64,000 nt of DNA from Bdellovibrionota bacterium (GTDB lineage: Bacteria; Bdellovibrionota_G; JALEGL01; DATDPG01). Below the pieces are notes generated by a model. It made no database searches. It was not told the origin of the DNA and saw only the letters and a program-made list of their open reading frames with translations. The DNA lies in the NCBI GenBank assembly GCA_035292885.1, contig DATDPG010000019.1, positions 59,570 to 123,569 of the forward strand, written 5' to 3'. Made by a program: the position numbers and the translations under genes. Every line of letters starts with the position of its first letter. Position 1 is the first letter of the stretch. Positions 21,716 through 51,312 of this stretch are shown here, in pieces.

Positions 21716-21719
21716 TGCG

Positions 21720-23835: not shown

Positions 23836-25218
23836 TCAGTCGCCGACCTCGCACTCCTGGAGGCTCCATGCGGGAAGCGAAGAATTACTTTCCTTGCCGA
23901 TCGACCGAAGCCTATAAAGGACGTCGCTCACCTGGACGACCTCGTATCCCCTGTAGTCCCAGCCCATCCGGCAGCGGGAATCTCCCGGGCATGTCATCCA
24001 TTCGGCGCAGCCGCCTTCGGGATCTCTCCTGTAGCATTCCGGGTGAGGACGCATCAACGGACATTGGTAGTCTCCGCTCAAACCGACCTTGGTCTCGAGG
24101 CATCCGTCCCAATTGGGATCGCCACCAAAAGCCTGAGTATCGTACGTTGGGGAAGAGGAGTAGTTGTTCGTATACGTCCCCGGGTTGAATGTGACTTTCG
24201 CGGTGTAACCCAACGCGTGGGTGGTTTGGCATTCAACGACGTCCGGTTTGCAGTTCTTGTCCATGCCATTGCCAAAAACATCCGGAGCCGTGGAATAGAC
24301 CGTCGGATCGTCGTCCTTGCAGTCGGTTCCCCCCGAAGTCATGTTCGCCTCTCCGTCTCCATCGTTATCCGCGTTGGTCGGATCGGTCAGCGGCTGCGTT
24401 GTCACCTCCTCGTAATCGGTCCGGCCGTCGCGATCCGTGTCTTTCGCCAAAGGGTCGGTCCTATAGGTGTGGACTTCCACGCCGTCATGAAGTCCGTCCC
24501 CATCCGTGTCGACGGACGCCGGGTCGGTTCCATAGGTCGACTCTTCGGGATCGCTCAGACCGTCGCCGTCCGAATCCGGGGGGCCGTACAAAAATCCACC
24601 TTCGAGGACGGACGAGCAACCGTCGGGATTTGCAGCCACAACATCCACCTTGCACGTGCCGGCACAGACGTGGTCTAGGCTTGGGACCGCTACGCCGATC
24701 GTCGAGTGGCTTACGGTCCCCTCGTACCTTGCTCGTTCGCCGCCGATGGAAACGATGGCCGAACCAGCTAAATCGACCACAAAATTTTCCCCCGATACAT
24801 CGACGTGCGTGTCCATCCTTCCGGAATTTGGAGTTAATGCCGTAATTTTCGGACGGGTCGTGCAGAGGGTCGCTCGCGTGTATGTGAAAGCATCAAAAAA
24901 ATCAGCCTTCCGCCCCTGAGCGTCGACCAAGGACACATCGACGGCTCCGACACTGTCACCGGCCGGCACCTGGACTTCAATCGCCGAGTCTTCGGCATGC
25001 AGGATCGCCGCCTCTCTTGAGGCGAAAAGAACCTTGCGAACCTCCCCGAAGCCCTTCCCGAGGATGGTGACCACCGATCCGCCTTCCCCCGAACCGGGCT
25101 CAATTCCAAGAAACGTCACGCTTTGCTGGAAGGACGTTGTTTCGCCATCGGGAGATGAACAGAAACAAAGCAAGAGACAGAGGGGGGCTACCCCAGCGAT
25201 CAGGTTCGGCTTCCGCAT
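23836..25218 (-). CDS. Secreted/lipoprotein with two IPT/TIG-like domains, TSP3-type Ca-binding repeats and a Cys-rich C-terminal domain
   Basis: Signal MRKPNLIAGVAPLCLLLCFCSS. IPT-like ITALTPNSGRMDTHVDVSGENF. Repeats DSDGDGLSD, DTDGDGLHD, DTDRDGRTD, DNDGDGE. MopE-like segment DCKDDDPTVYSTAPDVFGNGMDKNC. Confidence 0.7.
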   Translation of the reverse strand: MRKPNLIAGVAPLCLLLCFCSSPDGETTSFQQSVTFLGIEPGSGEGGSVVTILGKGFGEVRKVLFASREAAILHAEDSAIEVQVPAGDSVGAVDVSLVDAQGRKADFFDAFTYTRATLCTTRPKITALTPNSGRMDTHVDVSGENFVVDLAGSAIVSIGGERARYEGTVSHSTIGVAVPSLDHVCAGTCKVDVVAANPDGCSSVLEGGFLYGPPDSDGDGLSDPEESTYGTDPASVDTDGDGLHDGVEVHTYRTDPLAKDTDRDGRTDYEEVTTQPLTDPTNADNDGDGEANMTSGGTDCKDDDPTVYSTAPDVFGNGMDKNCKPDVVECQTTHALGYTAKVTFNPGTYTNNYSSSPTYDTQAFGGDPNWDGCLETKVGLSGDYQCPLMRPHPECYRRDPEGGCAEWMTCPGDSRCRMGWDYRGYEVVQVSDVLYRLRSIGKESNSSLPAWSLQECEVGD

Positions 25219-37129: not shown

Positions 37130-38365
37130 CTACGGTAAGTGCTTCGCATTCGGACTCGCCGGAGCCAGGCTCGTCAGAAACGCATAGAGATCCGCCATCT
37201 CCCGGCCCGTCAGTTTGGGCCACTTCAAGTGTTGCTCGGTATGCTTCTCTTGCATCTCGGTGGAGTGGTTCCACATCGCCGCGACCATGCCCATGGGGGA
37301 GTTCAATTTGCTGATGGCGGCGAAATCTTTCGCCGCGTTTCGTCCCTTGCCGTTTAAGGAGTGGCACGTCAGGCATTCTCGGTCCCTAACGAGATTCTCC
37401 CCTGTGGCGGGGCTCCCCGGTGCGTCCTCCAGTTTCATGCTGTAGAGATACGCGATGACGTGCGCCATCTCCCCCTCCTTGAAATCCGGGAACGTGAGTT
37501 TCTTTTCTTTCATCATCTCCCACATGGCGGGGCCGTGATTCCACATCTTGGCCGCGATCTCGGTCACGGGATAGTTGAAATCGACCTCAGCGAAATCGGG
37601 CGCCGTGGTTGGTGGTTTGGCACGGAACGAATGGCAATGCATGCACCCTTTTTCGGTCAAGAGTTCCTTCCCCTTTGAGGGATCGCCGAGGTCATAGTCG
37701 CTGGCCGGGAAGACGGTCGGGGCCATATACGAACGGATTCCGGCGGCCAGGGCGTCCATCTCGTCCTCTTCGATGACGGGCCGATCGATCTTGTACTTCT
37801 CAAAAAGCGCCAGCATTTTCGGGCCATGGTTCCACATCGCTTCCGCCAGTCGGATGGGGGAGATGTATTCCTTTTTCGCGCTGATGTCGGGAGCGATTCG
37901 GGCGCCTTCCCCTCCAAATTGATGACAAGAGAAGCATCCCTTTTCCTTCAGCACCTTTCTTCCCATCGATTCCCTCACCGGTTCCGCCATGTACCGGATG
38001 AAAGAGAGATAGCGAACCAGCTCGGACATCTCCTTCGGCGTGAACTTCGGAAAGGCATACCCTTTGGTCTCGATCTTCTTCGCCATTCTCGGAAGGTGAT
38101 TCCACATGACGGAAGAAAGCTCGAGGTATGTACCGTAAAACTTGCGGTTGCCCAGGTCGGGACCGCCGCGGCCCCCCCTCCCGTACACGGAATGGCACTG
38201 CGCGCATCCCTTCTGATGGAAGACTTCCCGACCCGGCCACGGTGAGGCCGAAGTGGCTGCTTCCTGCGCCCGAAGGGCGAAAATGGAGCCGGATGACATC
38301 AGGAGATACGCGAGAATGAATTGCAGGAGGCGGATGCAGTTTCTCCGGGTAGTGGACATAGTCAC
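37130..38365 (-). CDS. Tetrahaem cytochrome c built from four tandem class-I-like domains (paralog of 21720..22931)
   Basis: Signal LLQFILAYLLMSSGSIFALRA. CAQCH, CFSCH, CMHCH, CLTCH, each followed by MWNHxxxM. Confidence 0.85.
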   Translation of the reverse strand: MTMSTTRRNCIRLLQFILAYLLMSSGSIFALRAQEAATSASPWPGREVFHQKGCAQCHSVYGRGGRGGPDLGNRKFYGTYLELSSVMWNHLPRMAKKIETKGYAFPKFTPKEMSELVRYLSFIRYMAEPVRESMGRKVLKEKGCFSCHQFGGEGARIAPDISAKKEYISPIRLAEAMWNHGPKMLALFEKYKIDRPVIEEDEMDALAAGIRSYMAPTVFPASDYDLGDPSKGKELLTEKGCMHCHSFRAKPPTTAPDFAEVDFNYPVTEIAAKMWNHGPAMWEMMKEKKLTFPDFKEGEMAHVIAYLYSMKLEDAPGSPATGENLVRDRECLTCHSLNGKGRNAAKDFAAISKLNSPMGMVAAMWNHSTEMQEKHTEQHLKWPKLTGREMADLYAFLTSLAPASPNAKHLP

Positions 38366-38516
38366 CTCGTCGTTTCTTGTGAGATTAAAGCCCTGCTCCG
38401 TTTATCTCATGCATGACAAGAGGGTGAACGGCTGTATATGATTTAGATCAGCTGCCGGCGGACAACCGTCTGGAGAGCAATCGACGTTGCGCTCGTGGGG
38501 TCGGCCACGAGACAAG

Positions 38517-38768
38517 CTACTTTGCGGTGCCTTTCTTCCGAAAGATTCGAATAGGAGTTCCCAGCTTGTATAGCTCGCCCACTTTGCAGATGTCTTCGCA
38601 TTGGACGGAGATGCTCGCGCCCACGACTTTTTCGACGTCCGGGATTTCCTCCCATTCCTCCTCCAGGCCGCTGATTTCGGTCGCGACGCGGTCGAGTGTT
38701 GCGTCCGGAACGAGCTTTCCGAAGTGTTTCGTCAAAACCGTTCGGATTTTATCGGCGTCCCGGGGCAT
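38517..38768 (-). CDS. Small acidic hypothetical protein
   Basis: 83-aa ORF between vapC and the tetrahaem gene. No recognisable motif. Confidence 0.4.
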   Translation of the reverse strand: MPRDADKIRTVLTKHFGKLVPDATLDRVATEISGLEEEWEEIPDVEKVVGASISVQCEDICKVGELYKLGTPIRIFRKKGTAK

Positions 38769-38828
38769 AGAATCTCTCCTTCGCTTTCCATTCTCACCGT
38801 TGTTTGCGTATTTTAAATATGACCAGGA

Positions 38829-39257
38829 TCATTCTTTGAAGGGATTGAGGATTCGCAAGTCCTCTACGTGAAAACCATGCTGCAGGTCTTCGGTATAGAG
38901 CGCGTCACAATTCGAGGCCAGTGCCTGAGCCACAATGGCCGCATCCCAGAAAGACCAGCGATAACGATGCCGAAGGCGACACGCGTGGACGAAGATTTCC
39001 TGAGTTGTCACGACCGGGTCCCATGAAAAGTAACTACGACAGACATCGACGGCATCCTCGAAGGAAAGAGGTTTCGGGATCTTGGTCGCGACCGTGACGA
39101 GAAATTCCTGCAACACCTGCAGGCTCGTCGCAGCCGATTGGTTTTCCCAATGGGCCTTTACGAGATCCGAAGATCGATTTGATTTACCGGAATCACTTCG
39201 ATCATACGCATAGACGAGAATATTCGTGTCAAAGAAAGCGCGCCTATTTTCGGACAT
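38829..39257 (-). CDS. vapC: PIN-domain toxin VapC
   Basis: RAFFDTNILVYAYD (N-terminal acidic PIN motif), plus a later FWDAAIVAQA and ...YTEDL. Overlaps the upstream antitoxin gene by 14 nt. Confidence 0.85.
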   Translation of the reverse strand: MSENRRAFFDTNILVYAYDRSDSGKSNRSSDLVKAHWENQSAATSLQVLQEFLVTVATKIPKPLSFEDAVDVCRSYFSWDPVVTTQEIFVHACRLRHRYRWSFWDAAIVAQALASNCDALYTEDLQHGFHVEDLRILNPFKE

Positions 39258-39489
39258 GCAGGGCGTCCCTCGACCAGGTCACCTTTCCCACTTCATACAG
39301 GCCCTTCGCCATTCTTCGCATTTCCTTGCGAAACGCACGTTGATGAAGCGATTTCCGCGAAATGAGTTCGTGGGCGTATTTGGCAAGAAGCCTGGAGACA
39401 GACTGGTTGGCTTCGGCCGCGGCGATTCGGAGCTTTCGCAACAACGGGCGGGGGAGGGTCAACGTGATGTTTTCGAGATCTCTCTTCAT
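39244..39489 (-). CDS. vapB: Ribbon-helix-helix antitoxin VapB
   Basis: Start at MKRDLENITLTLPRPLLRKLRIAAAEANQSVSRLL (RHH beta-strand + helix pattern). Confidence 0.7.
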   Translation of the reverse strand: MKRDLENITLTLPRPLLRKLRIAAAEANQSVSRLLAKYAHELISRKSLHQRAFRKEMRRMAKGLYEVGKVTWSRDALHVRK

Positions 39490-39551
39490 TACACTATTAT
39501 CGTGTAACACGATTATCGTGTCAATGCCTCGACCGGGTGGTGCCAAGACAG

Positions 39552-40793
39552 TTACTTGCGCGGCGGAGGAAGCGAACGGATTTTGAGAGCCAGAGCGATG
39601 ACCAACAACGTGAGGAATATTGTGCTGATTCCGAGGCCGACTCGGCGGGTTTTGTTTTCGCGGAGAGCGGCTTTCCCCAAAGCGATGGCTTGATCCACAG
39701 CTTTTCGTCCCTCCGTGATCTTCGCCTCCACCCCCGGCATGGAAAAGGAGTGAATCTCGGTTCGTGCCTGAATCAACGCCTGCCGGGCATTTTGCATGCT
39801 GTCCTCGGCTTCGGTGACGTCCATTCCCTTGTCCCTCGCTTCTTCGATAATCTTCGAAGCTTCGGCCGAATAATTCTTCAAAGAGCCGATCATCTTGGAG
39901 AACGCCATGGCCACGGCGGCGCCTTTATCCCCCTCTTTGTGGCACTTGGCGCAGATCGCGCCTTGCTGCGTCCCGATCCGGTCATCTGAGATGTGAACGA
40001 TCAGATGATTGCCGTGGCAGGAAATGCATTCGCCGTAGGGATCCTTCTGCAGGGCTTTCGCCATGGGACTCTTGAGAAACAGCTCGGCGTTGTGGACGTG
40101 GCAGGAGCCGCAAATATGGGCGATGGATTTCAGTCCCGGCGGTGTGGCGCCGTGGTTGCCGTGACAATCGTTGCAGGCGGGAGCGCCCCGGACATCTCCT
40201 TTTTCAAGCAGAGCTTTCCCATGCACACTTTTCGCGTACTCGGCATAGACGGTCGTCGAGATCTTGTACGGCTTCATATATTCGGGGTCGGCGTGGCAAT
40301 GGGCGCACATCGTCGGCAGGTTCACCGCGTAAACCGGAGACTTCGCGTCGTTGACTTTCCGGATGTTGTGCACGCTGTGGCAGCTGACGCATTCGGCGAC
40401 TTTGGTGTCCCCCTGTTTCAGTTTCTTGCCGTGCTGGCTGGTCAGGTAGAGCTCATACTGATCGACCCGAAGCATCGGGTTGTATTTCTTCATGAAGACC
40501 GGGTTGCTGTGGCATTTCGCGCAAAGTTTCGGAATGTCCGCCCTCTTCGGCGCCCCTTTGAAGCCTTTCTTCGGGTCCATTGAGATATCTTGGTCGTCCG
40601 AGGTCGGATCTCCGCCGTGGCATTCGTTGCACCCGATTCCCGCCGTGGCGTGCACGTCATCCTTCCAGCGGGTGGAGGGCTCATCTTCCATCGACTGATG
40701 GCAGATAAGGCATTGGCCGCCGGGCAGCGCAGCAGCTTCTTCGGCGTATGCCGACGAAAGTACGTTCAGCAGAATGAATAAAATCCAACTCAT
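39552..40793 (-). CDS. Nonahaem cytochrome c with C-terminal TM anchor (partner of the Rieske/cyt b complex)
   Basis: Start MSWILFILLNVLSSAYA in an ATGA overlap with the cyt b stop. CLICH, CNECH, CAKCH, CVSCH, CAHCH, CNDCH, CGSCH, CISCH, CAKCH. C-terminal GLGISTIFLTLLVIALAL. Confidence 0.85.
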   Translation of the reverse strand: MSWILFILLNVLSSAYAEEAAALPGGQCLICHQSMEDEPSTRWKDDVHATAGIGCNECHGGDPTSDDQDISMDPKKGFKGAPKRADIPKLCAKCHSNPVFMKKYNPMLRVDQYELYLTSQHGKKLKQGDTKVAECVSCHSVHNIRKVNDAKSPVYAVNLPTMCAHCHADPEYMKPYKISTTVYAEYAKSVHGKALLEKGDVRGAPACNDCHGNHGATPPGLKSIAHICGSCHVHNAELFLKSPMAKALQKDPYGECISCHGNHLIVHISDDRIGTQQGAICAKCHKEGDKGAAVAMAFSKMIGSLKNYSAEASKIIEEARDKGMDVTEAEDSMQNARQALIQARTEIHSFSMPGVEAKITEGRKAVDQAIALGKAALRENKTRRVGLGISTIFLTLLVIALALKIRSLPPPRK

Positions 40794-41881
40794 GCGAGTA
40801 CGTGTCCGGCGATGGTCATTCCTATAAAAAAAAGCAATAGCGCCATCCCGATGCCGCGGAGAATCTTTGTGGTCGATTTCTTTTTTCCGCAGTCGATCCA
40901 TGGAATAAGCAGCCAAAACACGCCGATCCCGCCGAAGATCATGTGTCCGACCAGCTCCCCGTCAATCGGCCCCACCTTGGCGGGCAAGAACTTGAGCGTC
41001 TGGAACATGAAAAGGAAATACCACTCCGGTTTGATTCCGGCCGGGGCGGAGGCGAAAGGATCGGCTTTCCTTCCCAGTTCCCAGGGGAAGAAGACCGCCA
41101 GGATCGCCAAAATATCGAGAATGATAAACCAAAGTAAAACGTCCCGGAGAAAGAAGTGCGGGAAAAACGGGATACTCTTCCGGTTTTCCGGGTGGCGTTT
41201 CCAATCTTCGGGCTCGTGCATTCCCTGGATCTGCACGAACAGCAAATGAATACCCAGAACGGAAGTGAAGATCGCCGGGAGGAGGGCGACATGCAAAGCG
41301 AAGAAGCGGGTCAGCGTAGAGCCGGTGACTTCTTCTCCGCCGCGGAGAACATGCATGAGGGTTTTCCCGATGTACGGCACGACGCCGATCATGTCGGTGC
41401 CGACCTTGGTGGCGAAGAAGGAAAGTTCGTTCCACGGCAGCAGGTAACCCGAAAACCCGAACGTCATGACGATTCCCAGAAGGGCGAGCCCCGTGACCCA
41501 GCTGAGTTCGCGGGGTTTCCTGTAAGCTCCCATGAAAAAGACGCTGAACATGTGGATGATGACGGCCAGGACCATCAAATTGGCCGACCAGCTGTGGATC
41601 GACCGGATCAGCCAGCCGAAAGGCACTTTCGATGTGATAAATTGAACGCTCTCGAAGGCCGCGTCGGCGCTCGCCTTGTAATAGAACATCAGGAGAATGC
41701 CGGTGGAGAGTTGGACGATGAAGAGAAAGAGGGAAACTCCGCCGAAGTAATACCAGATCGCGGTCTTTCCCATCGGCACTTCTTTGTGCCGCCCCCACTC
41801 AATCAGCTGTGCGATGGGATATCGGTCGGACAGCCATTCGATCGCGAGAGCGGCCCTACGCTTTAAGTGAGATGTAAACAT
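40790..41881 (-). CDS. Cytochrome b (fused b6 + subunit-IV-like) of a bc-type complex
   Basis: YYFGGVSLFLFIVQLSTGILLMFYY, RSIHSWSANLMVLAVIIHMF, GYLLPWNELSFFATKV and the PEWYFLFMFQTLK (PEWY) motif. Confidence 0.9.
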   Translation of the reverse strand: MFTSHLKRRAALAIEWLSDRYPIAQLIEWGRHKEVPMGKTAIWYYFGGVSLFLFIVQLSTGILLMFYYKASADAAFESVQFITSKVPFGWLIRSIHSWSANLMVLAVIIHMFSVFFMGAYRKPRELSWVTGLALLGIVMTFGFSGYLLPWNELSFFATKVGTDMIGVVPYIGKTLMHVLRGGEEVTGSTLTRFFALHVALLPAIFTSVLGIHLLFVQIQGMHEPEDWKRHPENRKSIPFFPHFFLRDVLLWFIILDILAILAVFFPWELGRKADPFASAPAGIKPEWYFLFMFQTLKFLPAKVGPIDGELVGHMIFGGIGVFWLLIPWIDCGKKKSTTKILRGIGMALLLFFIGMTIAGHVLA

Positions 41882-42308
41882 CTTCTCCCTGAACGTGGAC
41901 TTCGTACGTGTCGAGCGGGTGAGGCGGCGGGCCGGCCACATTGTTTCCGTTCAAATCGTATTGACCGTTGTGACAAGCGCACCAAATGCGCTCCATGTCG
42001 GGCCGGTACTGGACGATGCAGTCGAGGTGCGTGCATTTTCCCGTGAACGCGGCGAAACTGCCGTCCTTCTTGCGGACCAGCAGCGCCGGTTTGTTTCCGA
42101 ACTTGCAGATTTTCCCGCTGTTCGGGGGAATCTCGGAGACCGCAGCGACTTTCGCCGAAGAGACTTTGGCTTCGGTCTCCGCGACAGGAGTGAGGTAGCG
42201 AACGATCGGATAAAAGACGGACCCCACCCAGGCGAAACCGCTGGCCCCTAAAAGGGTGTTCAAGAATCCGCGTCGGGAGGTTTCGGTCGAGCTTCGAATC
42301 GGTTTCAT
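41856..42308 (-). CDS. Rieske [2Fe-2S] protein, Tat signal
   Basis: SRRGFLNTLLGASG. CTHLDC...CACHNGQY Rieske boxes. Confidence 0.9.
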   Translation of the reverse strand: MKPIRSSTETSRRGFLNTLLGASGFAWVGSVFYPIVRYLTPVAETEAKVSSAKVAAVSEIPPNSGKICKFGNKPALLVRKKDGSFAAFTGKCTHLDCIVQYRPDMERIWCACHNGQYDLNGNNVAGPPPHPLDTYEVHVQGEDVYISLKA

Positions 42309-43236: not shown

Positions 43237-45168
43237 TTAAGGGTTGGGGCGATCGAGTTCGCGCGGATGATCCCGTTCCATTTCATGGCGGGTCACTTTG
43301 CCCGTGAGCCACGTTACGTTCATCGGATATTCATCCGGATGGAATATCACGAAGAAGAGGTGCCACACGAGAATGGCCAGCGTCGCCAGCCACGCCTCAA
43401 AATAGTGAATCAACTCCGCCAGCGGGATGCCCCAAACGGGAAGGAATCTTGAAAACAGTTCTGGAAACCAGAGCGCAAAGCCCGTGACCGACATCACGAT
43501 CGTTCCCCAAATGAGCGCCCAATATTCCGCCTTGTGAATGTACGTGTACCGGCCGAGCTTCGGTGCCGTGGCTGCGCGCGCCCGGACGAGTTTAACGTAA
43601 TAAAAGATGTTGGCCGATAAATCCCGGACATCCGTGAGACGCGGAAGAAGCTCCCGAATCTCCTTTCGGCCCTGACGTGTGAAGATCGAATGGAAAATGT
43701 GAAGGACTCCCGCGCTTAACATGATCACCGCGCTGGTACGATGGATGACGCCGCGAGCGTGTTCACCCAAATGAACCCAATCCAAAATCACCGTCCAGCC
43801 GGCGCGAGAAAAATGAAGCGCGAAGCCGGTGATGACAAGCGTCGTAAAGCTCACCAGGAGCAGGCCGTGAGCCACGAGCTGAATCGTTGTGAATCGGGTG
43901 TAGACGACTTCTTCCCGGTGTGAGCGGATCTTTTTCACGACGGCCGCTGCATAAATGAGCAAGTTATGAAGAAGCATCAGGCCGATCGTGCTGACAATCA
44001 TCCAGAGATAGAGAATGCGAACCCAGTAGAGAATGGGGCTGGCTGTCGGAGAGGTGTCCAAGTGCACGGGAACGCGGCTGAACGCCTGCGTTGCATCGGG
44101 GTGGCACTTGCCGCAGGTCTTGGCCAGGTTGTCCGGATGAATCGAGGAGCGGGTATCGGAAGAGGGGAGAATCCGGTGCGTTTCATGGCAGCTGGAACAG
44201 TTTGCGACGGTGACCGAGCCGCGCCGGACGGCCATGCCATGATAACTCTGCATGTACGTTGAAAGCCGTTGAATTGAAAATCCGTATCGCTGGGCCAGAG
44301 TAAGATCGGAATGACAGTGGCCGCACGTCTTCGTTGTCAGCTGTGCAGGCGACACAGGCGATTCAGGCGATTTCGTGTCGACGATGGCGTGTTCGCCGTG
44401 GCAGTCCGTGCAGGCGGGGGCGTCCGTAATCCCGCGAGCGACGGCCTGTCCGTGCACGGAGACCTTATAATCTTCTAAGATATCGCTGTGGCATCTTCCA
44501 CATGTTGCGGGAATTTGTTTCTTCGAAACCGCGGACATCATTTCACGTCCCGGCTGGATCGTGTGATAGCCGTGACAGTCGGTACAGACGGCGGCTTTCA
44601 GATTACCAGCCGCAATGGCACGACCGTGGACGCTGTTTTTATACGCGCCGACAGGGTCGGACACGGGGATGTCGTATTTCTTGGCGAGTTTGATGTCGGC
44701 GTGACACTTGGCGCACAAAGCGGGGACGTTGGCTTTGCTGTGTCTCGCGGTTTCGCTGGTGAACGGCTGAATCAAATGCGCGTCGCCGTGGCAATCGACA
44801 CAAGAAGGCGCATCTGAAATCCCATTGTTCTTTGCAGTGCCGTGCGTGCTGCCGCGGTACTCCTTTTCGGCATCTTCATGACAGCTTCCGCAATTTACTT
44901 TTTGTGGAGCTTCCTCATGCTCGCCGAAGGGCCCGCCGGCGTGGCAGTCGGTGCAGGCTAGTTCGCCGTGGACGGAAGCCTTGAAAACTTTGGGATCCAC
45001 GACGTCATGGCAATCAACACACTTTTTCGGATCGATTCGGTTCGCGGCAAAAACCGACGAAATCGCAAACATTGCGCAGCCGACGAATGCCAAGCCCGAT
45101 TTTGTAAAGGGAACCCCGGTCGGTTTCAAAAATTGGACACTCATCCGATGAAAACGCCCGCCAAGCAT
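43237..45168 (-). CDS. CbcL-like inner-membrane fusion: 11-haem cytochrome c domain + HydC/FdnI-type cytochrome b domain
   Basis: Eleven CXXCH motifs: CVDCH, CTDCH, CGSCH, CVDCH, CAKCH, CTDCH, CGRCH, CTDCH, CGHCH, CSSCH, CGKCH. These are followed by a 4-TM b-type domain (YTRFTTIQLVAHGLLLVSFTTLVITGFAL...IHKAEYWALIWGTIVMSVTGFALWFP) with conserved His. The start may be the internal MSVQF at 45144. Confidence 0.8.
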   Translation of the reverse strand: MLGGRFHRMSVQFLKPTGVPFTKSGLAFVGCAMFAISSVFAANRIDPKKCVDCHDVVDPKVFKASVHGELACTDCHAGGPFGEHEEAPQKVNCGSCHEDAEKEYRGSTHGTAKNNGISDAPSCVDCHGDAHLIQPFTSETARHSKANVPALCAKCHADIKLAKKYDIPVSDPVGAYKNSVHGRAIAAGNLKAAVCTDCHGYHTIQPGREMMSAVSKKQIPATCGRCHSDILEDYKVSVHGQAVARGITDAPACTDCHGEHAIVDTKSPESPVSPAQLTTKTCGHCHSDLTLAQRYGFSIQRLSTYMQSYHGMAVRRGSVTVANCSSCHETHRILPSSDTRSSIHPDNLAKTCGKCHPDATQAFSRVPVHLDTSPTASPILYWVRILYLWMIVSTIGLMLLHNLLIYAAAVVKKIRSHREEVVYTRFTTIQLVAHGLLLVSFTTLVITGFALHFSRAGWTVILDWVHLGEHARGVIHRTSAVIMLSAGVLHIFHSIFTRQGRKEIRELLPRLTDVRDLSANIFYYVKLVRARAATAPKLGRYTYIHKAEYWALIWGTIVMSVTGFALWFPELFSRFLPVWGIPLAELIHYFEAWLATLAILVWHLFFVIFHPDEYPMNVTWLTGKVTRHEMERDHPRELDRPNP

Positions 45169-45213: not shown

Positions 45214-45588
45214 TTATTTCGCCTTTGACTGCAGGTCTCGCGTGTATTCCGTCAACGCCGTAATGTCGGCGTCCGACAGTCCTTCCAACTTCTTCATCTT
45301 CCCTTTGCCCTCTTTCATCGACTTCTTAATGTCGTCGTCGGTGATTTTCTTGGCTTCGGGGGAAAGGATGCTGAGCCCTTCCGGCTTTTCGAGCTTCAGG
45401 GTTTTAGCTACCGGCATCCAGGAGCCGTCCGCCTTCTTTCCGCCGCCGTCTTCCGCGTGGCATTTCTTGCAATGCTTGTCGTACAGCGCCTTTTTCGCGG
45501 CGTCATCCGCCGCGAATGCGGACGCGGCAAACATCAAAGCGGGCACAACCAGGATTCCGATCAGTCCAATCAACGTCTTCTTCAACAT
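45214..45588 (-). CDS. Small periplasmic monohaem cytochrome c (paralog of 12625..12975)
   Basis: Start MLKKTLIGLIGILVVPALMFAASAFA behind RBS GGAGGA. Single CKKCH. Confidence 0.85.
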   Translation of the reverse strand: MLKKTLIGLIGILVVPALMFAASAFAADDAAKKALYDKHCKKCHAEDGGGKKADGSWMPVAKTLKLEKPEGLSILSPEAKKITDDDIKKSMKEGKGKMKKLEGLSDADITALTEYTRDLQSKAK

Positions 45589-45719: not shown

Positions 45720-48700
45720 TTAACGCAACGTCGCGTTCGGAACCGCCACGCCGGTGATTACCTTATACGTCCCTTGGAGGACGCCGACCTCGTATCCGGC
45801 GTTATGGACGCCCATGCTGCCGTCTCGAACCACCAGATTGTGGTTCCAGATCGCCCGGCGGATCTTGTCGGATCGGGCCCACTTGAAGGCCCCGCCGGCG
45901 GGATAGACGCTAACGCCGGGGTTGCAGTCCGCGGCGTTCGTGCAGGCCGTAGTAAGGTCGTTGTCGCACTTGCCGGCAATGTACGCCCCGCACGTGCTGA
46001 GGCACTTGTCGTGCGTCGGCGTCGGATCCAAAGGATCGACCGTACCACACGAGATGGTCGTATCTTCTTTGCACCGGTTCTTGCTCGAACCCGAGGTATT
46101 GCACGGACGCGCATCCGCGCCTGCACCGTTGAAGTTCGAGTAACCCAGAGCGTCCGGAACGATGCAGTCGTTGTCCGTGGAACACTCGATCTCATCCGTA
46201 CTCCCGGCGGTGGACCTCGGTTTTGCGATGGTGCACTTGTTGGTCGCAGTGACACAGGGGCCGAAGTACATCGTCCCCGTCGTCGCAATTTTGCAGTCCT
46301 CGTCCTTGGAGCAACTATAGGCCGAACGTTGATCACACTTTCCGGCTGTGATCGTCCCGCACGGTCCGTAGTTCGTCGCTGATACGGTCGTCACATTCAC
46401 CTTCTTCAGGTTGCATCCGGCATCCGAAGTGCAGAATTGAGCGTCGGCCACAATCGTAGTACTTGCTGCCGAGCAAGTCTTGACCGCGTCGCAACTCGTG
46501 TCACCAGCCGCCGTGCAACTGATGTAGGGCGCCAGCGTACACTTCTTGTTTGCGTTGCAGTCACCCGCGTCCAGTGTAGTGACACTGCACGTTCCCAGGT
46601 TCACGTCGTCGTACGCTTTGATGGCGTCCGACAAGAGGAGCGCAAGCCCCGTGACTTCGTCCTGGATCCCCTCGATCGTCCCATCGCCGTCGTAATCGCC
46701 GCGAGCCTCACGGTTAATCTCCGTGAGATCCGTGTGACATGGCGTGCACGCGCTGATGTTCGCGAGCTCACCCGCTTCACCGGCTACGGTCTCCTCTTCC
46801 TCGGCACCGACTAGATGGCCGACGCCGTGACCGCTCATAATGTTGAAAGAGTGACCGCCCAAGTGGCGGAACCCATCCTCCGTCGCATCCGGCCCCTCGG
46901 CCATGTGGCACGTGAGGCACTTCCGGTTCTCCGTCGGCAATGTCGGGTCACCCGAAACATCCGCCAGAATAAATCCCGGCTCGGAATGGAACGAATTCCC
47001 CGTTGTGAAGACATCGTCGATTCCGTTTTTGTCGAGGTCGAGAAGAGCCCCCTTTCCTTCGAGAACGGGAGCCTGCGGATTGTAGTGGACCTGTCGCGTG
47101 TAATAGTCCGCGTTTTGCTCCAACGTCTCGCAGAGCGTATCTGAAACGCCGTCGCGATTCGTGTCGCACGAAAACTCTCCGAAACTGTAGAGGCCGTCGT
47201 GGCACTTGTAACAAACGGCCGCCTTCCCGGCATCCACTGTCGATTCGTCGATGATCATCTCGAGCTCTCCGTGCATTCGAAGCTGGTCCTCGTTTGTCGC
47301 GTCGTGCGGGTCATGACACCCAGCGCACCCGATACCGACGAAAGCCTCCTGTTCCGTGATCGGCGTGAGGGCTTCCTCGCCCCCCTCCACATAATTGATG
47401 AAGCCCTTGGAGGTATGGCAGCGTGTACAGGCTGCGTTCGTGAGCCATGAAACCTGATAGCTGGCGGAGCCGTGCGAGACGCCGGTCATGTTGTGCGAGG
47501 AGTTGATCCATTCGGCCTCTTGCGTATGACACTGGCCGCAGATACCGGTCTGAGAAGCGGAGACACCGATCTTCGTGGCGTCGCCGTTGTGTCCCGAACC
47601 CGGGCCATGGCAATTCTCACACTGAACACCGCTTAGAGCGGCCACGGAAGGCGCATCCGCCAAGAAATCGGCGTATGTGCCCGGCTGGGTGGAAACGTCA
47701 AAGCCGGTCGAGGCCACGGCCTCGTCAAATCCGCCGTTTGCGGCGGACGTATTGTAACCGACCGTTTCAAAGCCCCACAGATAGGGCTCGGGTGCCAGCG
47801 ATGACATGGCCAGATACGAATTTTCGTAGAGCTTTGAGTGATTTGTTCCCTGCCACTCGCCGACTTTGTCCGGCATCGCCGAACCGTCATGGCATCCGGC
47901 GCACTCGGGCCTCGCCGCGTCGCCGGTGATACTTCCGATGCCTACATACGTCCCGGCATACATCCGGAACGAACCCACGATCGTGCAATGATCCACGCCG
48001 CCGTCCGAGGTGTATTTACAATTGGGCGCGACACGGCCGCACGCCCGTACACCATCCGCATCGGGTCCCACAGCCGATTCATCGACCGTCGCCGTGTAGG
48101 CCACCGTGTAATACCCCTCGACATCCGGCGTGAACTTGGGGAGCTGAAGCGCTGAGGCTACGGTTCCGGAATCGGCAAAAACGGCTGCAGATCCATCCGG
48201 GGGTGTCAGCGTCCAAGACCAGTCATCGTTGATGGGCTTGGCGCGCCTCGTGGTCGGCGTGCTCGTCGAAGGCAACGAACCGTTACACGCTGTCGAAGTG
48301 GATGTGTACTCCAATATGACCGAACTGTTCGGTCCCTGCAGGTAGAGGGGAACATTCAGCGGAACGGTCCAAAGACCGCTCGACCGCTGAATCTCGGCAC
48401 CGGCGTCCTGAACATAGACCACCTGTGTCGTGCTGTCGCTGTTCCCGGCACCGTCGTCCACCGTCAACCTGAAATAGAGTTTCGTATCTTCGATCGAAAC
48501 AGGGAGCGGTTGCCACTTGTACTCATCACTTTGTCCGCCGTGCGCGGCGTTCTCCTCAGCTTCCCTCAAACCGACGGTCAGAAAATCCTTAAGCGCGGGA
48601 GCGGTGAACGGAAGAGTTGAGGACGTGCTCCCGGCCGTCGCGGTCGCGAAGGGGCCGGAGACCTGCTGCCAGCTGTAGTTCACGACACTTCCGCGGCTGT

Positions 48701-49163
48701 TTTCGCCGGAGAGAATTCCACCCGCGTCTTCCAAATCGATGGCCAGTTCATCCGTTCCGAATCGTGTGCGTGTGGTGATGGTGGAACCGGAACCGTTCGT
48801 GATGACCGCAAGAATCGTCTTGGCCGTGACGCTGACCGTGTCGGTGCTTTCGGCATCGTGGAGAGAGAGTTTCAACACGTACGTGCCGGCCGCGTCCGCG
48901 ACAAAGCTGGTCGCGATTTCGGAACCGCCCGTCAGAGCGGCGGAAGAACCGTCGGGTTTCGATTCAAGCGTCCATATAATATTGCCGACGACCGTGCTTC
49001 CGGAACCGTCCAAATTCACGGTGTCGCCGATCAGGACCTTCTGGTCCTCGCCTGCGTTAGCGGCGGCGGTCCCTTCCGGATCGTCGTCGCATGCCGAAAC
49101 ACTGATCGCCACGGCGGCAGCCGCGAGAAGATTGATCATCCAAAGTCCCTTCGTGCTTTTCAT
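45720..49163 (-). CDS. Giant surface lipoprotein octahaem cytochrome c with PKD-like domains and Cys-rich C-terminal repeats
   Basis: Start MKSTKGLWMINLLAAAAVAISVSAC (lipobox; RBS GAGGGAGAG). Motifs CAGCH, CENCHGPGSGH, CGQCH, CTRCH, CAGCHDPH, CYKCH, CLTCH, CTPCH. PKD-like DTVNLDGSGS...AGTYVLKLSLHD. C-terminal 4-Cys modules. Confidence 0.85.
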   Translation of the reverse strand: MKSTKGLWMINLLAAAAVAISVSACDDDPEGTAAANAGEDQKVLIGDTVNLDGSGSTVVGNIIWTLESKPDGSSAALTGGSEIATSFVADAAGTYVLKLSLHDAESTDTVSVTAKTILAVITNGSGSTITTRTRFGTDELAIDLEDAGGILSGENSRGSVVNYSWQQVSGPFATATAGSTSSTLPFTAPALKDFLTVGLREAEENAAHGGQSDEYKWQPLPVSIEDTKLYFRLTVDDGAGNSDSTTQVVYVQDAGAEIQRSSGLWTVPLNVPLYLQGPNSSVILEYTSTSTACNGSLPSTSTPTTRRAKPINDDWSWTLTPPDGSAAVFADSGTVASALQLPKFTPDVEGYYTVAYTATVDESAVGPDADGVRACGRVAPNCKYTSDGGVDHCTIVGSFRMYAGTYVGIGSITGDAARPECAGCHDGSAMPDKVGEWQGTNHSKLYENSYLAMSSLAPEPYLWGFETVGYNTSAANGGFDEAVASTGFDVSTQPGTYADFLADAPSVAALSGVQCENCHGPGSGHNGDATKIGVSASQTGICGQCHTQEAEWINSSHNMTGVSHGSASYQVSWLTNAACTRCHTSKGFINYVEGGEEALTPITEQEAFVGIGCAGCHDPHDATNEDQLRMHGELEMIIDESTVDAGKAAVCYKCHDGLYSFGEFSCDTNRDGVSDTLCETLEQNADYYTRQVHYNPQAPVLEGKGALLDLDKNGIDDVFTTGNSFHSEPGFILADVSGDPTLPTENRKCLTCHMAEGPDATEDGFRHLGGHSFNIMSGHGVGHLVGAEEEETVAGEAGELANISACTPCHTDLTEINREARGDYDGDGTIEGIQDEVTGLALLLSDAIKAYDDVNLGTCSVTTLDAGDCNANKKCTLAPYISCTAAGDTSCDAVKTCSAASTTIVADAQFCTSDAGCNLKKVNVTTVSATNYGPCGTITAGKCDQRSAYSCSKDEDCKIATTGTMYFGPCVTATNKCTIAKPRSTAGSTDEIECSTDNDCIVPDALGYSNFNGAGADARPCNTSGSSKNRCKEDTTISCGTVDPLDPTPTHDKCLSTCGAYIAGKCDNDLTTACTNAADCNPGVSVYPAGGAFKWARSDKIRRAIWNHNLVVRDGSMGVHNAGYEVGVLQGTYKVITGVAVPNATLR

Positions 49164-49189
49164 GTTTTCTCTCCCTCTCATGAAAGTTC

Positions 49190-49984
49190 TTACTGCGTAT
49201 GACATATGATGCAAGCCTGTCCATTGTCCGGATGCCGAAGCGGCGTATGGCAGCCCCGGCAATCCGCGTTAGGTAGATGGTTGACGTTGCTCGGTCGCCT
49301 CGGCGTGGCCATGTGAGCCGAGCTCGTTTGGTGGCACACCACGCACCTCTGTGCCCCATACGATTCCAGCGGGTAATGACAGTTCAGGCAGTGCCGATTT
49401 TGGGACGCCCCGAACCCGGCCATGTGATCGATCGGCTTCGTTTCCATATGGCACCGCTGGCAGAAGTCGGTCCGGTGGCACGTCATGCACTGCGATCGGT
49501 CGAAGCCCACCTGGAGCGCATGGCCGCGGAGGCGGAAGAATTGGTTGTGATTCGCCGGCGGCGTGATCTGGTGGCATTCCGAGCAGCTGGACTGCGTGTG
49601 GCAGAGGTTGCAGCTGTTCTTCGTGTCGAACCTAAACCGCTGCACCAGCGCGCCGTGCTCATGCTTGAACGTCAAATCGTGCCAGGCCGGTTTCGTGTCT
49701 TTGGTCATCCCGCCTTCGTGACATTCCGAACAGTCGCTGTCTCGCGCAACATCCGGGTGCTCCCACGTTGTGCCTTCGTCGCACCCTTTGTTGCCGAGAA
49801 AAAATGGGACCGCGAGCATTATTGTTAAAACAGACAACGATCGTCTGATGGGGTGCCAAGAAAATACGTTCGGGCTCCGGTCCCGACGGTACCCCCCAAG
49901 TCCATGCTCGAGACTGCGCGTGGACTTGGGTGTCCCCGTCGGGCCACCCGAACGTATTTTCTTGGCACCCTTCAAAAGTTCCAA
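49190..49984 (-). CDS. Nonahaem cytochrome c (periplasmic/barrel-inserted component)
   Basis: CSECH, CNLCH, CSECH, CMTCH, CQRCH, CLNCH, CVVCH, CRGCH, CIICH, with paired CxxCH-x4-CxxCH units as in 13308..13910. Hydrophobic segment LSVLTIMLAVPFFLGNKGC. The exact start is uncertain. Confidence 0.85.
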   Translation of the reverse strand: MELLKGAKKIRSGGPTGTPKSTRSLEHGLGGYRRDRSPNVFSWHPIRRSLSVLTIMLAVPFFLGNKGCDEGTTWEHPDVARDSDCSECHEGGMTKDTKPAWHDLTFKHEHGALVQRFRFDTKNSCNLCHTQSSCSECHQITPPANHNQFFRLRGHALQVGFDRSQCMTCHRTDFCQRCHMETKPIDHMAGFGASQNRHCLNCHYPLESYGAQRCVVCHQTSSAHMATPRRPSNVNHLPNADCRGCHTPLRHPDNGQACIICHTQ

Positions 49985-51312
49985 GCGACCCTCACATCCA
50001 ACGTATGGAAATTGTCCAGGTCACTGGTTTCAAATTCGTACCCGAGCCGCCCCTCAAAGTCTTTGAGAAACTTCACGGTTCCCCGCGCATAGTACGTTTG
50101 GACGTTGTCCGATTCGTTCCCGGCTAAAAGGTTATATCGATAGAGGTAGAAAGCTGTTCCGGCCGTCAGCCGCAGCTTCCGCTTCAACAGGTCTTGGGCG
50201 ATGGAGAAAGATGTCCCGTACGTATCGTTCTGAAGTTCGTTGTCCTGTCCCAAATAGTAATCGCCGGTTAACGAAAGGCTCATGCCGTCGAGCGGCCATT
50301 CGATCGTTGACCCCGTCAAAAAGAACCGCTGAAAACCGTGATTGAACGCACTGGCGACCTGCTCTTCAATCAAAATACGGAATGCATACCCCGCATCCAG
50401 GGCAAAATGCTCGCCGATCCCCTTCATCCCGGTGAAGGCCATTTCGTAATACGGTTTGTATTCCCCGGCGAACGAATACGGATCCAGATCGATCACGCGG
50501 ACACCGTACGACTCGAGGAGACTGAAGAAGTGAAACTGGAGAGAAAGGTTCTGTTCGATGAATCGGTACCGGGTGTCGAGGGCCAAGTCCCGGACTTGAT
50601 CCAAGAACGATGTAAACCTCGAGGAAATCATGAGCCCCGGCTGGGCGTCCCACCAAACGCTCAGGCCGAAGAGATCATCTTCGATGTCACCGACGTTCGC
50701 CCGGAAGCCGGTGAAGTCATCCTTCAAATGAACGTAATCGAAACGGGCCCGAACCACCTTGACCGGATCGATCTCAAACGCTCCGCCGGCGACAAAATCG
50801 CCGCTGTCGGAACCGGTTTCCGTTTCGTAGAAATGGACCGGAACGCCGCCGTACGACATCAGCTTGAACCCTTTGGCTTCCCGCCACTGAAGGGAGAGGC
50901 CGTCGAAGTACAGCGACTCGAATTCCTGCCGGAACTGCCGTCCCGCGCGAAGCCGATCGAATACGCCGAGGTTGTTGGCGTCGAGGTAGGCGTGGTAGAT
51001 CCGCCCCGCGGCGCCGGTGTTGAAGGAGTCGTACACGCCATTGAACGTGGAATCCGAACTGTCGCCGTCCAGGTCGAAAATCCCGCCGGCCTGCAGGGAA
51101 ACCGCCACGCGGTCGTTCAAAGGCTCGCCCATGTTGAGCGAAAGAAGCGTTTCAAGATCCTGATCGCTGGTATCGGCGGTGGCGCGCAGTTTGTAACGGG
51201 TGCTGATGGAACCGAAAATATTGGAGTCTTCCGCGATCGCCGCATCGCAATAGACATACGCCCCAAAAAGGAGAAGCGTACATCCCAACCGACGGCGGCG
51301 AGAGGCGAGCAT
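49972..51312 (-). CDS. Outer-membrane beta-barrel (porin component of a porin-cytochrome module)
   Basis: Signal MLASRRRRLGCTLLLFGAYVYCDAAIA, amphipathic strands, and C-terminal ...LDVRVAWNF. Paralogous by eye to 13897..15126. Confidence 0.65.
   Translation of the reverse strand: MLASRRRRLGCTLLLFGAYVYCDAAIAEDSNIFGSISTRYKLRATADTSDQDLETLLSLNMGEPLNDRVAVSLQAGGIFDLDGDSSDSTFNGVYDSFNTGAAGRIYHAYLDANNLGVFDRLRAGRQFRQEFESLYFDGLSLQWREAKGFKLMSYGGVPVHFYETETGSDSGDFVAGGAFEIDPVKVVRARFDYVHLKDDFTGFRANVGDIEDDLFGLSVWWDAQPGLMISSRFTSFLDQVRDLALDTRYRFIEQNLSLQFHFFSLLESYGVRVIDLDPYSFAGEYKPYYEMAFTGMKGIGEHFALDAGYAFRILIEEQVASAFNHGFQRFFLTGSTIEWPLDGMSLSLTGDYYLGQDNELQNDTYGTSFSIAQDLLKRKLRLTAGTAFYLYRYNLLAGNESDNVQTYYARGTVKFLKDFEGRLGYEFETSDLDNFHTLDVRVAWNF

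Follow-up and report, generated by a model that had tools for sequence, protein, structure and literature searches.

We consider it reasonably likely that the protein encoded at positions 45720–49163 of the window, the 64,000-nucleotide stretch of a Bdellovibrionota metagenome-assembled genome analysed here, is the lipid-anchored surface terminal cytochrome of a three-gene porin-cytochrome conduit, composed of a β-barrel protein, a nine-haem periplasmic cytochrome and an eight-haem lipoprotein. Electrons would exit the quinol pool via a neighbouring CbcL-like cytochrome, which combines 11 haems with cytochrome b, cross the periplasm via a monohaem cytochrome c and then the nine-haem protein threaded into the barrel, and would be passed by the eight-haem domain, which has the OcwA/NrfA fold, to an extracellular acceptor, for example, Fe(III)/Mn(IV) oxides or humics. 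The same route might also be travelled in the opposite direction. The analysis establishes the domain architecture, the homology and fold, the loss of haem 2, the topology of the insertion, its purifying selection and the conservation of the gene trio, whereas localisation, assembly into a complex, the direction of the current, the disulfide bonds and the function of the insert are inferred. The coding sequence, which like all features described below lies on the minus strand, is complete from the ATG start to the stop codon and is preceded by a GGGAG ribosome-binding site. A preliminary description of this DNA had assigned the protein 1180 amino acids (aa). The uninterrupted open reading frame spans positions 45720–49262, whereas the ATG start corresponds to 45720–49163 and yields 1147 aa, in agreement with public gene calls and an identical public protein (P0001).

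Gene neighbourhood and direction of electron flow

Two genes upstream of the cytochrome gene would supply the other parts of the conduit. The more distant one (49972–51312) encodes a 446-aa putative outer-membrane β-barrel protein with a signal peptide, a terminal ...VRVAWNF and a β-periodicity of z=3.0 relative to shuffled sequences. It has no Pfam or PDB match and no transmembrane helix past the signal peptide, and its assignment as a barrel derives from these crude sequence statistics; orthologues with 42%–46% identity occupy the same position in loci L001 and L002. The nearer gene (49190–49984) encodes a 264-aa cytochrome with nine CXXCH motifs, a candidate periplasmic or trans-barrel wire, which has no significant relative in the PDB and also adjoins the homologues of the outer cytochrome in L001, L002, L003 and L088. 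The order of the trio, namely, a protein of ~445 aa without Pfam match, a multihaem protein of ~220–260 aa and the PKD-cytochrome, is the same in the window, L001, L002, L003 (partial) and L088, the latter carrying four tandem paralogues of the outer cytochrome.

Genes for a presumptive barrel and for two multihaem cytochromes, one periplasmic and the other a lipoprotein, stand side by side, as is characteristic of Pcc/Mtr-type clusters. The gene logic and the proposed mechanism are the same as in Geobacter OmbB-OmaB-OmcB (Pcc), in which OmcB has 12 haems, and in Shewanella MtrCAB, but neither the barrel nor the nine-haem protein displays detectable sequence homology to solved Mtr components, and the outer cytochrome has the NrfA/OcwA fold rather than the staggered-cross fold of MtrC/OmcA. 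Membership in the MtrC/OmcA family, with its decahaem staggered-cross fold, β-barrel domains I/III and TIGR03507 signature, was rejected.

Downstream, a gene for a 124-aa monohaem class-I cytochrome c (45214–45588; Pfam PF00034, one CXXCH) is followed by one for a CbcL-like protein (43237–45168) that combines 11 CXXCH motifs with a membrane cytochrome-b domain (Pfam Ni_hydr_CYTB and multihaem families) and is a candidate quinol oxidase/reductase. Further downstream, on the same strand, lie genes for a Rieske protein, cytochrome b, a nine-haem cytochrome c and a four-haem class-I cytochrome c with FixO-like similarity. With a Rieske/cytochrome b complex and cytochromes c of class I close by, the neighbourhood is as compatible with electron uptake (Fe(II) oxidation) as with outward transfer.

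The direction of the current is the point at which the proposed scheme has its most serious competitor. With the same architecture and location, the surface cytochrome could oxidise Fe(II) or another extracellular donor, the electrons flowing inward via periplasmic cytochromes c and either ending at an oxidase or being driven uphill by way of the Rieske/cytochrome b complex. We regard this as possible, although less probable than outward transfer. The monohaem cytochrome directly downstream and the Rieske, cytochrome b, nine-haem and FixO-like genes beyond it are consistent with inward flow, and there is precedent for porin-cytochrome modules operating either way, MtoAB and PioAB among them. 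By contrast, CbcL-like quinol-linked cytochromes are tied to outward transfer in Geobacter, and the sequence leaves the haem potentials unspecified. The nearest characterised relatives of the outer cytochrome, OcwA and OmhA, are cell-surface terminal reductases that reduce Fe(III) oxides (PMC6703420, PMC7829351).

A cysteine-rich insertion in the C-terminal helix bundle

The outer cytochrome contains an insertion (aa 854–1090; 45894–46604) found only in the window protein and in a 74%-identical homologue, P0002 (alignment A1 and loop survey). Its 24 cysteines lie between aa 859 and 1080, a stretch of ~220 aa. The preliminary description placed this region in the last ~230 aa and took it for a stalk. 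It is internal instead: the 57 residues that follow it are conserved better than any other part of the protein (94.7% identity to P0002) and contain the invariant GVHN motif. As judged from the alignments and the structural model, the insert occupies a loop of the C-terminal helix bundle that is hypervariable, forming an excursion between helix 1 (aa 833–852) and helices 2–3 (aa 1099–1137). The segment carrying helices 2 and 3 (aa 1091–1147; 45723–45893), with its invariant DGSxGVHN motif (H1120), aligns with the C-terminal helices of OcwA, OmhA and NrfA.

In 77 relatives, the same loop comprises 89–296 aa and its cysteine count is always even (0, 2, 4, 6, 8 or 24). P0002 retains all 24 cysteines, with an identity of 75.6% in the insert as against 78.3% in the core; pN is 0.167 and pS 0.625 (dN/dS ~0.14), and the insert is under purifying selection. 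Where about six repeated modules had been described, just three units show a relationship that goes further than shared composition (aa 933–957, 968–1000 and 1056–1080): they have the spacing C-x7-C-x7-C-x5-C, with z-scores of 7.7 and 4.5 relative to shuffles, and there is a 31-nt DNA repeat (D2/D3; 77% identical, spaced 369 nt). In the remaining three groups of four cysteines the spacings differ, and their scores are no higher than those of shuffled sequences. The first copy, GPCGTITAGKCDQRSAYSCSKDEDC (46293–46367), and the third, STCGAYIAGKCDNDLTTACTNAADC (45924–45998), are supported by both the module comparison and the DNA repeat; the second (46164–46262), supported by the module comparison, has an extra loop of 9 aa that its counterpart in P0002, with plain x7-x7-x5 spacing, lacks. 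A fourth 4-Cys unit (C1021-x9-C1031-x7-C1039-x14-C1054; 46002–46109) corresponds, in the loop comparison, to the sole cysteine cluster of the same loop in many family members and is ancestral.

The module was unfamiliar to the first description, and neither the insert nor single modules match any curated family in Pfam-A or NCBIfam, the HMM searches at E≤10 returning only chance-level Squash, Nodulin and WAP fragments (E 0.07–1.9). Nothing in the protein is without precedent except this cysteine-rich loop of 220 residues, which occurs in no more than two sequences. The pLDDT of the insert in the AlphaFold model is mostly <50 and hence does not establish an ordered, disulfide-rich fold, although with only two sequences such low confidence is uninformative either way. 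We suggest that, in this lineage, a loop at the tip of the helix bundle that is both hypervariable and exposed on the surface has expanded, growing from the ancestral 4-Cys unit to 24 cysteines. These are most likely cross-linked by 12 disulfides, and the insert probably serves as a rigid, projecting surface for contact or adhesion and stands outside the electron path.

Alternatively, the insert might be a functional thiol or metal module, either a redox-active dithiol/disulfide relay or a set of Cys4 sites that sense or bind surface metals. The grouping of the cysteines in fours, their conserved spacing and the retention of all 24 under purifying selection are compatible with such a function, and cation binding by the Asp-rich C[ST]xDxDC ends is conceivable. 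Nevertheless, we find it unlikely: the C-x7-C-x7-C-x5-C spacing fits no CxxC-type metal or redox motif, the even cysteine counts in all relatives fit disulfide pairing, and the signal is of the Sec/lipoprotein type and not of the Tat type, which speaks against pre-assembled Fe–S clusters. Moreover, in the model the insert leaves the far end of a 20-residue helix at an estimated ~30 Å from the haem core and would therefore be too far away for direct electron exchange.

The octahaem domain and its relatives

The haem domain (aa 406–853; 46605–47948) contains eight CXXCH motifs, at aa 421, 515, 542, 579, 613, 651, 749 and 806, and both the W-x2-[ST]-x-H motifs and the CENCHGPGSGH signature are present and conserved, all as first described. 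The suspected kinship with NrfA is also borne out: among solved structures, the surface cytochromes OcwA and OmhA come nearest, and nitrite reductases of the octahaem and pentahaem types rank next. In an hmmsearch of PDB sequences, the family profile matched OcwA (6i5b) with E=5e-30, OmhA (6qvm) with 1e-22, NrfA (2vr0/2j7a) with 6e-16 and MccA with 1e-7. The AlphaFold model of the core has pLDDT >90 across most of the haem domain, and the OcwA/NrfA superfamily fold is shared, including the C-terminal helix bundle with its G(I/V/F)HN motif.

By sequence, the haem domain is related to OcwA (TherJR_2595, PDB 6I5B), the nonahaem cell-surface terminal reductase of Thermincola potens, in which the electron output is surface-exposed (PMC6703420). 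Both proteins share the order of haem motifs, the CE(N/Q)CHGPG..H, CHxxHD and CHM motifs and the C-terminal DGSxGVHN helix. OcwA, however, has nine haems, two of which (2 and 5) are of open coordination, whereas the window protein has lost the haem-2 site: the relic LWGFE (47766–47780) occupies a position at which 60 of the 61 wider-family members have C-x-x-C-H (column counts, alignment A5), and the stretch CGQCHTQEAEW is devoid of the HH motif of the OcwA site. Nine CXXCH motifs are found in 53 of 61 members of the wider family, and the second motif is lost in 46 of 49 members of the PKD subfamily. With eight CXXCH motifs, LWGFE at the haem-2 site and no HH, the protein was not classified as OcwA proper, which, in addition, comes from a monoderm and lacks the lipobox, the PKD/Ig domains, DxDxDG loops at these positions and the cysteine-rich loop. 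OcwA is also stated to have none of the redox-active disulfide bridges proposed for the Shewanella surface cytochromes OmcA/MtrC (PMC6703420). OmhA (PDB 6QVM), the S-layer cytochrome of Carboxydothermus ferrireducens, differs in being undecahaem, with an N-terminal two-haem extension, and in belonging to a Gram-positive envelope; it too is devoid of PKD domains and the cysteine-rich insert.

The octahaem core had also been read as that of a surface-displayed catalytic reductase, which would reduce nitrite, hydroxylamine, sulfite or tetrathionate at an open-coordination haem. The NrfA-superfamily fold on which this reading drew stands, and CTRCH (aa 579–583; 47415–47429) occupies the position of the catalytic haem 1 (CXXCK) of NrfA and of the five-coordinate haem 5 of OcwA in HMM alignments to 2vr0 and 6i5b. 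Furthermore, H693 aligns with the pocket His380 of OcwA, a protein that slowly reduces nitrite in vitro (haem roles and activity: PMC6703420). The reading is nevertheless weakened to the point of being very unlikely. No CXXCK motif is present in the protein, and the second open site of the OcwA type has disappeared with haem 2 and its HH motif; the residue aligned with OcwA His381, Y694 in the window protein, varies in the family (Y/H/F/N/D), these pocket correspondences coming from sequence alignments (the AlphaFold model contains no haems). Eight invariant non-motif histidines (442, 525, 557, 620, 693, 726, 771 and 1120) and Met754 could suffice as sixth ligands for every haem, and the neighbourhood, in which no NrfH/NrfBCD-type partner was found, is of the conduit type, with a barrel-like protein and wire-like cytochromes, rather than a nitrite reductase operon.

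Similar considerations distinguish the protein from the pentahaem NrfA and octahaem ONR nitrite reductases (for example, 2VR0, 1QDB and 8RV0), the catalytic haem position of which is the one aligned with CTRCH: it has extra N-terminal haems, is lipid-anchored, carries Ig domains and is encoded in a porin-cytochrome context. Assignment as an NrfA nitrite reductase was rejected on the grounds of the missing CXXCK, the eight rather than five haems and the barrel-like, nine-haem, monohaem and CbcL-like neighbours. Octahaem tetrathionate reductase (OTR) has no C-terminal oligomerisation helices and carries its open-site haem in the N-terminal module (PMC9250108), a description that does not apply to the window protein.

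The 49 members of the subfamily show conservation of all three Asp-rich loops noted earlier, which for the third (DYDGDG..E) extends to the wider family. With alternating conserved Asp/Asn, Gly and a subsequent acidic residue, they follow the DxDxDG or EF-hand-like pattern and are candidate calcium loops. The first, CDTNRDGVSDTLC (47130–47168), is of the DxNxDG type and is closed by Cys666 and Cys678, both present in 49 of 49 sequences (G672 in 46 of 49); this Cys-bounded loop is absent from the wider family. The second, DLDKNGIDD (47013–47039), is DxDxDG-like and, according to the alignment columns, subfamily-specific, and the third, DYDGDGTIEGIQDE (46656–46697), is an EF-hand-like loop conserved family-wide (D823 and E836 each in 109 of 110 sequences) that leads into helix 1 of the C-terminal bundle, modelled at aa 833–852.

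The lipid anchor and N-terminal Ig-like domains

The signal peptide (49089–49163) ends, as proposed, in a lipobox, VSAC, in which the lipid-modified C25 is invariant in 16 homologues. The residues at +2, +3 and +4 are Asp-Asp-Asp; under the '+2 rule' of Escherichia coli, which may not be that of Bdellovibrionota, Asp at +2 keeps a lipoprotein in the inner membrane. Such retention would favour a periplasm-facing electron hub anchored to the inner membrane or to the inner leaflet of the outer membrane, which we consider highly improbable given that 15 homologues have a different +2 residue, mostly Gly or Ser, that exposed proteins typically show such features as the PKD/Ig domains, the T9SS-tailed relatives and the hypervariable loop with paired cysteines, and that the gene order is the same as in porin-cytochrome clusters. 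Surface exposure is also indicated by the wider family, in which Pfam assigns to members T9SS sorting tails, TSP3 repeats or FlgD-Ig domains.

The lipobox together with a Pfam PKD domain supports the initial view of a lipoprotein with PKD/Ig-like modules. Domain 1 (aa 31–118; 48810–49073) is a K319L-like PKD domain that matches PF22352 at aa 37–113 (E=6e-11; score of 42.5 bits, cut-off 27) and, in a profile comparison, the PDB entry of a KIAA0319L PKD domain, and is modelled by AlphaFold as a β-sandwich with pLDDT ~90. Domain 2 (aa 119–255; 48399–48809), a second PKD-like stretch with modelled strands of pLDDT 78–90, resembles the PKD domains of KIAA0319L (the AAV receptor) weakly and contains a lineage-specific insert at aa 198–212 (alignment A1). 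In the bacterial cytochrome these domains are N-terminal spacers, with no functional relation to KIAA0319L. The three Ig-like domains separate the haem domain from the lipid anchor and therefore form a natural tether, which would keep the haem domain off the membrane. The last of them, the β-rich domain 3 (aa 256–405; 47949–48398; alignment A1), has AlphaFold strands with pLDDT mostly 54–89 and lineage-specific inserts with four extra cysteines (293, 375, 382 and 393), all of which are kept in P0002.

The lipoprotein and its haem domain

The cytochrome gene lies in an uninterrupted open reading frame on the minus strand (45720-49262), within which 45720-49163 begins at the ATG of codon 34, with GGGAG upstream. 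From this start the protein is 1147 aa long, rather than 1180 aa as in the preliminary description; independent gene calls gave the same length, as does an identical public protein from a Bdellovibrionota MAG, annotated as 'cytochrome c3 family protein'. The signal peptide closes with VSAC, the cysteine of which (C25) is invariant in 16 homologues. Straight after this lipid Cys, residues 26-28 (49086-49088 and the following codons) are Asp-Asp-Asp, whereas the +2 residue is never Asp and mostly Gly or Ser in 15 aligned homologues. Under the E. coli rule, Asp after the lipid Cys would signal inner-membrane retention; the Asp residues at +2 to +4 thus leave the choice between a surface and a periplasmic location uncertain.

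Three beta-rich domains (aa 31-405; pLDDT mostly 54-92 in the full-length AlphaFold model) separate the lipid anchor from the haem domain and are therefore an obvious tether or spacer. An above-threshold Pfam match marks aa 37-113 as a K319L-like PKD domain, in addition to matches to generic multihaem families, and KIAA0319L PKD domains from the PDB match domains 1 and 2 as well. Lineage-specific insertions at aa 198-212, 288-304 and 364-394 (within nt 47949-48809), common to the window protein and its closest homologue, P0002, bring four extra conserved cysteines (293, 375, 382 and 393) into Ig-like domains 2 and 3, and the gain of Cys-containing surface insertions therefore looks like a general trend in this lineage.

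The haem domain carries eight CXXCH motifs (aa 421, 515, 542, 579, 613, 651, 749 and 806), and a search of the protein for CXXCK found none. A profile of the 110-sequence family, searched against PDB sequences, matched OcwA (6i5b, E=5e-30), OmhA (6qvm, 1e-22), Desulfovibrio NrfA (6e-16), other NrfAs at lower significance and MccA (1e-7), so that the core, earlier termed NrfA-style, was rightly placed at the superfamily level. The two nearest relatives that have been characterised reduce Fe(III) at the cell surface of Gram-positive thermophiles (PMC6703420, PMC7829351). Full-length AlphaFold modelling from 16 sequences left the haem core unusable (pLDDT <50), and a run with the 110-sequence alignment brought the greater part of it above pLDDT 90 (model mean 76.8, pTM 0.79); Foldseek of the model against the PDB gave no significant match. 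Both the haem core and the PKD domains belong to known kinds.

Column counts over the 110 sequences revealed nine CXXCH motifs, motif for motif as in OcwA, in 53 of the 61 members of the wider family; in the PKD-octahaem subfamily, the second motif lacks both cysteines in 46 of 49 members (consensus LWxFH; LWGFE in the window protein). Haem 2 of OcwA is one of two five-coordinate haems and has an HH motif above it (PMC6703420), a stretch that the window protein lacks. Those who solved the OcwA structure suggested that octahaems descend from OcwA-like nonahaems in which either haem 2 or haem 5 was lost (PMC6703420). Judging from the alignment, the PKD subfamily is a natural case of haem-2 loss and would exemplify that step of the scheme for octahaem evolution (PMC6703420, PMC9250108). 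CTRCH (aa 579-583), the remaining candidate open site, aligns with the CXXCK haem of NrfA and with haem 5 of OcwA, and the non-ligating H380 of OcwA with H693; the position of Y694, equivalent to H381, is variable in the family. Met754 and eight non-motif histidines (442, 525, 557, 620, 693, 726, 771 and 1120) vary little or not at all, and their number would suffice for a sixth ligand at every haem, although one haem may still have an open site.

The three Asp-rich loops that had been pointed out in this domain are all conserved by the column counts, and their motifs suggest that they may bind calcium. Two of them are insertions specific to the subfamily, namely CDTNRDGVSDTLC (aa 666-678), bounded by two cysteines invariant in the subfamily, and DLDKNGIDD (aa 709-717); the third, DYDGDG..E..E (aa 823-836), is kept across the whole family (D823 and E836 in 109/110 each).

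The cysteine-rich insert

Of the 47 cysteines in the protein, 24 fall within aa 859-1080, a region previously taken for a C-terminal tail. The protein alignment shows instead an insertion of ~220 aa (aa 854-1090), preceded by the conserved DYDGDG..EGIQDEV helix and followed by the terminal RRAIWNHNLVVRDGSxGVHN...LQGTY; the last 57 residues are the best conserved in the protein (94.7% identity to P0002). Homologue searches turned up a single full-length relative, P0002 (1145 aa, 74% identical), along with ~50 shorter ones (850-1100 aa, 42-57% identical) that share the PKD-plus-octahaem architecture. AlphaFold flanks the insert with a helix at aa 833-852 and helices at aa 1099-1114 and 1122-1137, which are modelled as the three-helix bundle typical of the NrfA superfamily; the insert would then sit at the far tip of this bundle. 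In 77 relatives the same loop spans 89-296 aa and holds 0, 2, 4, 6, 8 or 24 cysteines, always an even number; the loop is thus hypervariable and rich in paired cysteines, with the insert as its most extreme form. One of its groups, C1021-x9-C-x7-C-x14-C1054, comes after the conserved strand IVPDALGY and is the counterpart of the single 4-Cys unit that many family members have in this loop (GxC-SSF..C-..AGT.SC-.NVA.GKTRDDYQQC-NF). The insert marks the bundle-tip loop as a hotspot for the gain of disulfide-paired surface elements, and this loop would be a good place to seek determinants of substrate or surface specificity.

The preliminary description, largely correct apart from this topology, had over-counted the repeat. 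Of about six modules proposed, three are related, with the pattern C-x7-C-x7-C-x5-C (aa 933-957, 968-1000 and 1056-1080): their alignment gives z=7.7 and 4.5 relative to shuffled sequences, with 0/500 shuffles reaching the observed score, a 31-nt stretch of DNA recurs with 77% identity in copies 1 and 3, at a distance of 369 nt, and the module at aa 968-1000 has a 9-aa extra loop absent from P0002. The other three 4-Cys groups do not rise above shuffles and do not match the module HMM. Searching with this HMM, built locally from the three canonical modules, gave no additional copy, whether in the window, in the homologue loci L001-L088 or among 227 proteins.

The insert is constrained coding sequence. 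All 24 cysteines are conserved in P0002, with almost exactly the same spacing, the identity is 75.6% in the insert and 78.3% in the core, and pN=0.167 and pS=0.625 correspond to a dN/dS of ~0.14. The AlphaFold model of the insert, resting on two sequences, has pLDDT mostly <50 with short islands of ~70 and is uninformative on an ordered fold.

The module had been described as unrecognised, and the insert has indeed no Pfam or NCBIfam match, even at E<=10. Neither a phmmer search against 1.84 billion representative proteins, among which the member standing for the query's own 50% cluster probably lacks the insert, nor a scan of GTDB genomes and JGI metagenomes with the insert's back-translated pattern yielded a true relative. 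With the insert alone, a word-index homologue search gave no hit and also missed the identical public protein, which makes it an unreliable negative. The sole phmmer match, P0121, is a 2342-aa protein whose score was summed over 22 weak stretches; it consists of a degenerate ~40-aa tandem repeat and is almost certainly a translated satellite and a database artefact. A likeness of the Thr/Ser/Asp-rich C-x5-C units to the beta-helical antifreeze protein of Tenebrio was likewise discarded as one of composition only (BLASTP E>=0.28, with an approximate antifreeze sequence). The Cys-rich module is thus confined to two sequences and unrecognised by curated libraries, and because it is known from these two only, the insert is of narrower interest.

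A porin-cytochrome-like gene trio and its putative electron route

Two genes lie immediately upstream of the cytochrome on the same strand. The product of the first (446 aa) has a signal peptide, a C-terminal end ...VRVAWNF, significant amphipathic periodicity of the beta type (z=3.0) and no hydrophobic helix beyond the signal peptide; it has no Pfam match and no informative relative in a PDB profile search. That of the second (264 aa) carries nine CXXCH motifs and likewise had no informative relatives in a PDB profile search. Orthologues of both (42-47% identity) precede the PKD-cytochrome at loci L001 and L002, and the pair is arranged in the same way at L003 and L088. The last of these (GCA_040960315.1, 4794-21815) has a 514-aa barrel-like gene, a 231-aa multihaem gene and then four tandem PKD-cytochrome paralogues (851, 1075, 1899 and 952 aa), with a Ccm maturation operon adjoining.

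In encoding a putative barrel, a multihaem protein and an outer cytochrome together, the locus obeys the same gene logic as porin-cytochrome conduits, among them Geobacter Pcc and Shewanella Mtr. The trio shares this logic with MtrCAB and Geobacter Pcc but differs in that the outer cytochrome has the NrfA/OcwA fold. To our knowledge, outer cytochromes of this fold have so far been characterised only in Gram-positive thermophiles, and Gram-negative extracellular electron transfer is understood almost entirely from MtrCAB and Geobacter Pcc/Omc. A haem-2-less OcwA-fold octahaem as the outer part of a Gram-negative porin-cytochrome-like trio is a new, uncharacterised variant, and the locus suggests a third solution to extracellular electron transfer in these bacteria.

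Downstream are genes for a monohaem class-I cytochrome c and for a CbcL-like protein with 11 haems and a cytochrome b domain. Farther downstream of the conduit genes, 37130-42308 (minus strand) encodes a Rieske protein, cytochrome b, a nine-haem c and a four-haem class-I c, together resembling a bc-type complex with a multihaem c subunit.

In the scheme that we propose, the lipoprotein would be exported, loaded with eight haems and anchored via C25 on the cell surface, docked to a barrel that is traversed by the nine-haem protein. From the quinol pool, electrons would then flow through the CbcL-like protein to the octahaem domain and on to an insoluble or polymeric acceptor, with the Ig-like domains serving as a spacer and the insert forming a disulfide-stapled protrusion at the helix-bundle tip. 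As the insert is estimated to lie ~30 A from the haem core, it is likelier to be a contact, adhesion or shielding surface than an electron path. The direction of flow is less certain, since the nearby Rieske/cytochrome b genes and class-I cytochromes would fit an inward flow, with oxidation of Fe(II), equally well. We consider unlikely a combined reading in which four propositions would hold at once: that the insert is a new, independently folding disulfide-knotted repeat (C-x7-C-x7-C-x5-C); that, grafted onto the helix-bundle tip of a surface cytochrome, it acts as a mineral- or cell-binding head or a redox-switchable thiol module; that the family is an unrecognised class of Gram-negative porin-cytochrome conduits with an outer component of the NrfA/OcwA fold; and that this component may retain one open-coordination haem.

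Spread of the family and other genes in the window

Members of the wider nonahaem family bear T9SS tails, FlgD-Ig domains or TSP3 repeats. They are spread over many phyla, in at least 339 GTDB species genomes, one of which is that of the isolate Stygiobacter electus. We know of no study of a protein of this family from these genomes. Literature searches found no paper describing the PKD-octahaem subfamily and nothing on PKD-domain multihaem cytochromes or on Stygiobacter electus; Gavrilov et al. had earlier remarked on the clustering of OcwA with uncharacterised nonahaems of Gram-negative origin (PMC7829351).

Several other genes of the window deserve mention. A FeoB ferrous-iron transporter (10412-12463, minus strand) shares the window with the putative iron-respiratory cluster. 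At 16940-22931 (plus strand), the gene for a molybdopterin oxidoreductase (834 aa) precedes two ORFs in overlapping frames and the gene for a 417-aa cytochrome c, which has two class-I domains; the set may be a respiratory module resembling ACIII or Psr. Two paralogous Ser/Thr protein kinases of ~527 aa (26428-28017, plus strand; 30270-31850, minus strand) enclose a TLC/MFS-type transporter gene (28004-30256), and a 460-aa protein with a TIG/IPT domain and a bacterial TSP3 repeat (23836-25218, minus strand) may be another surface protein.
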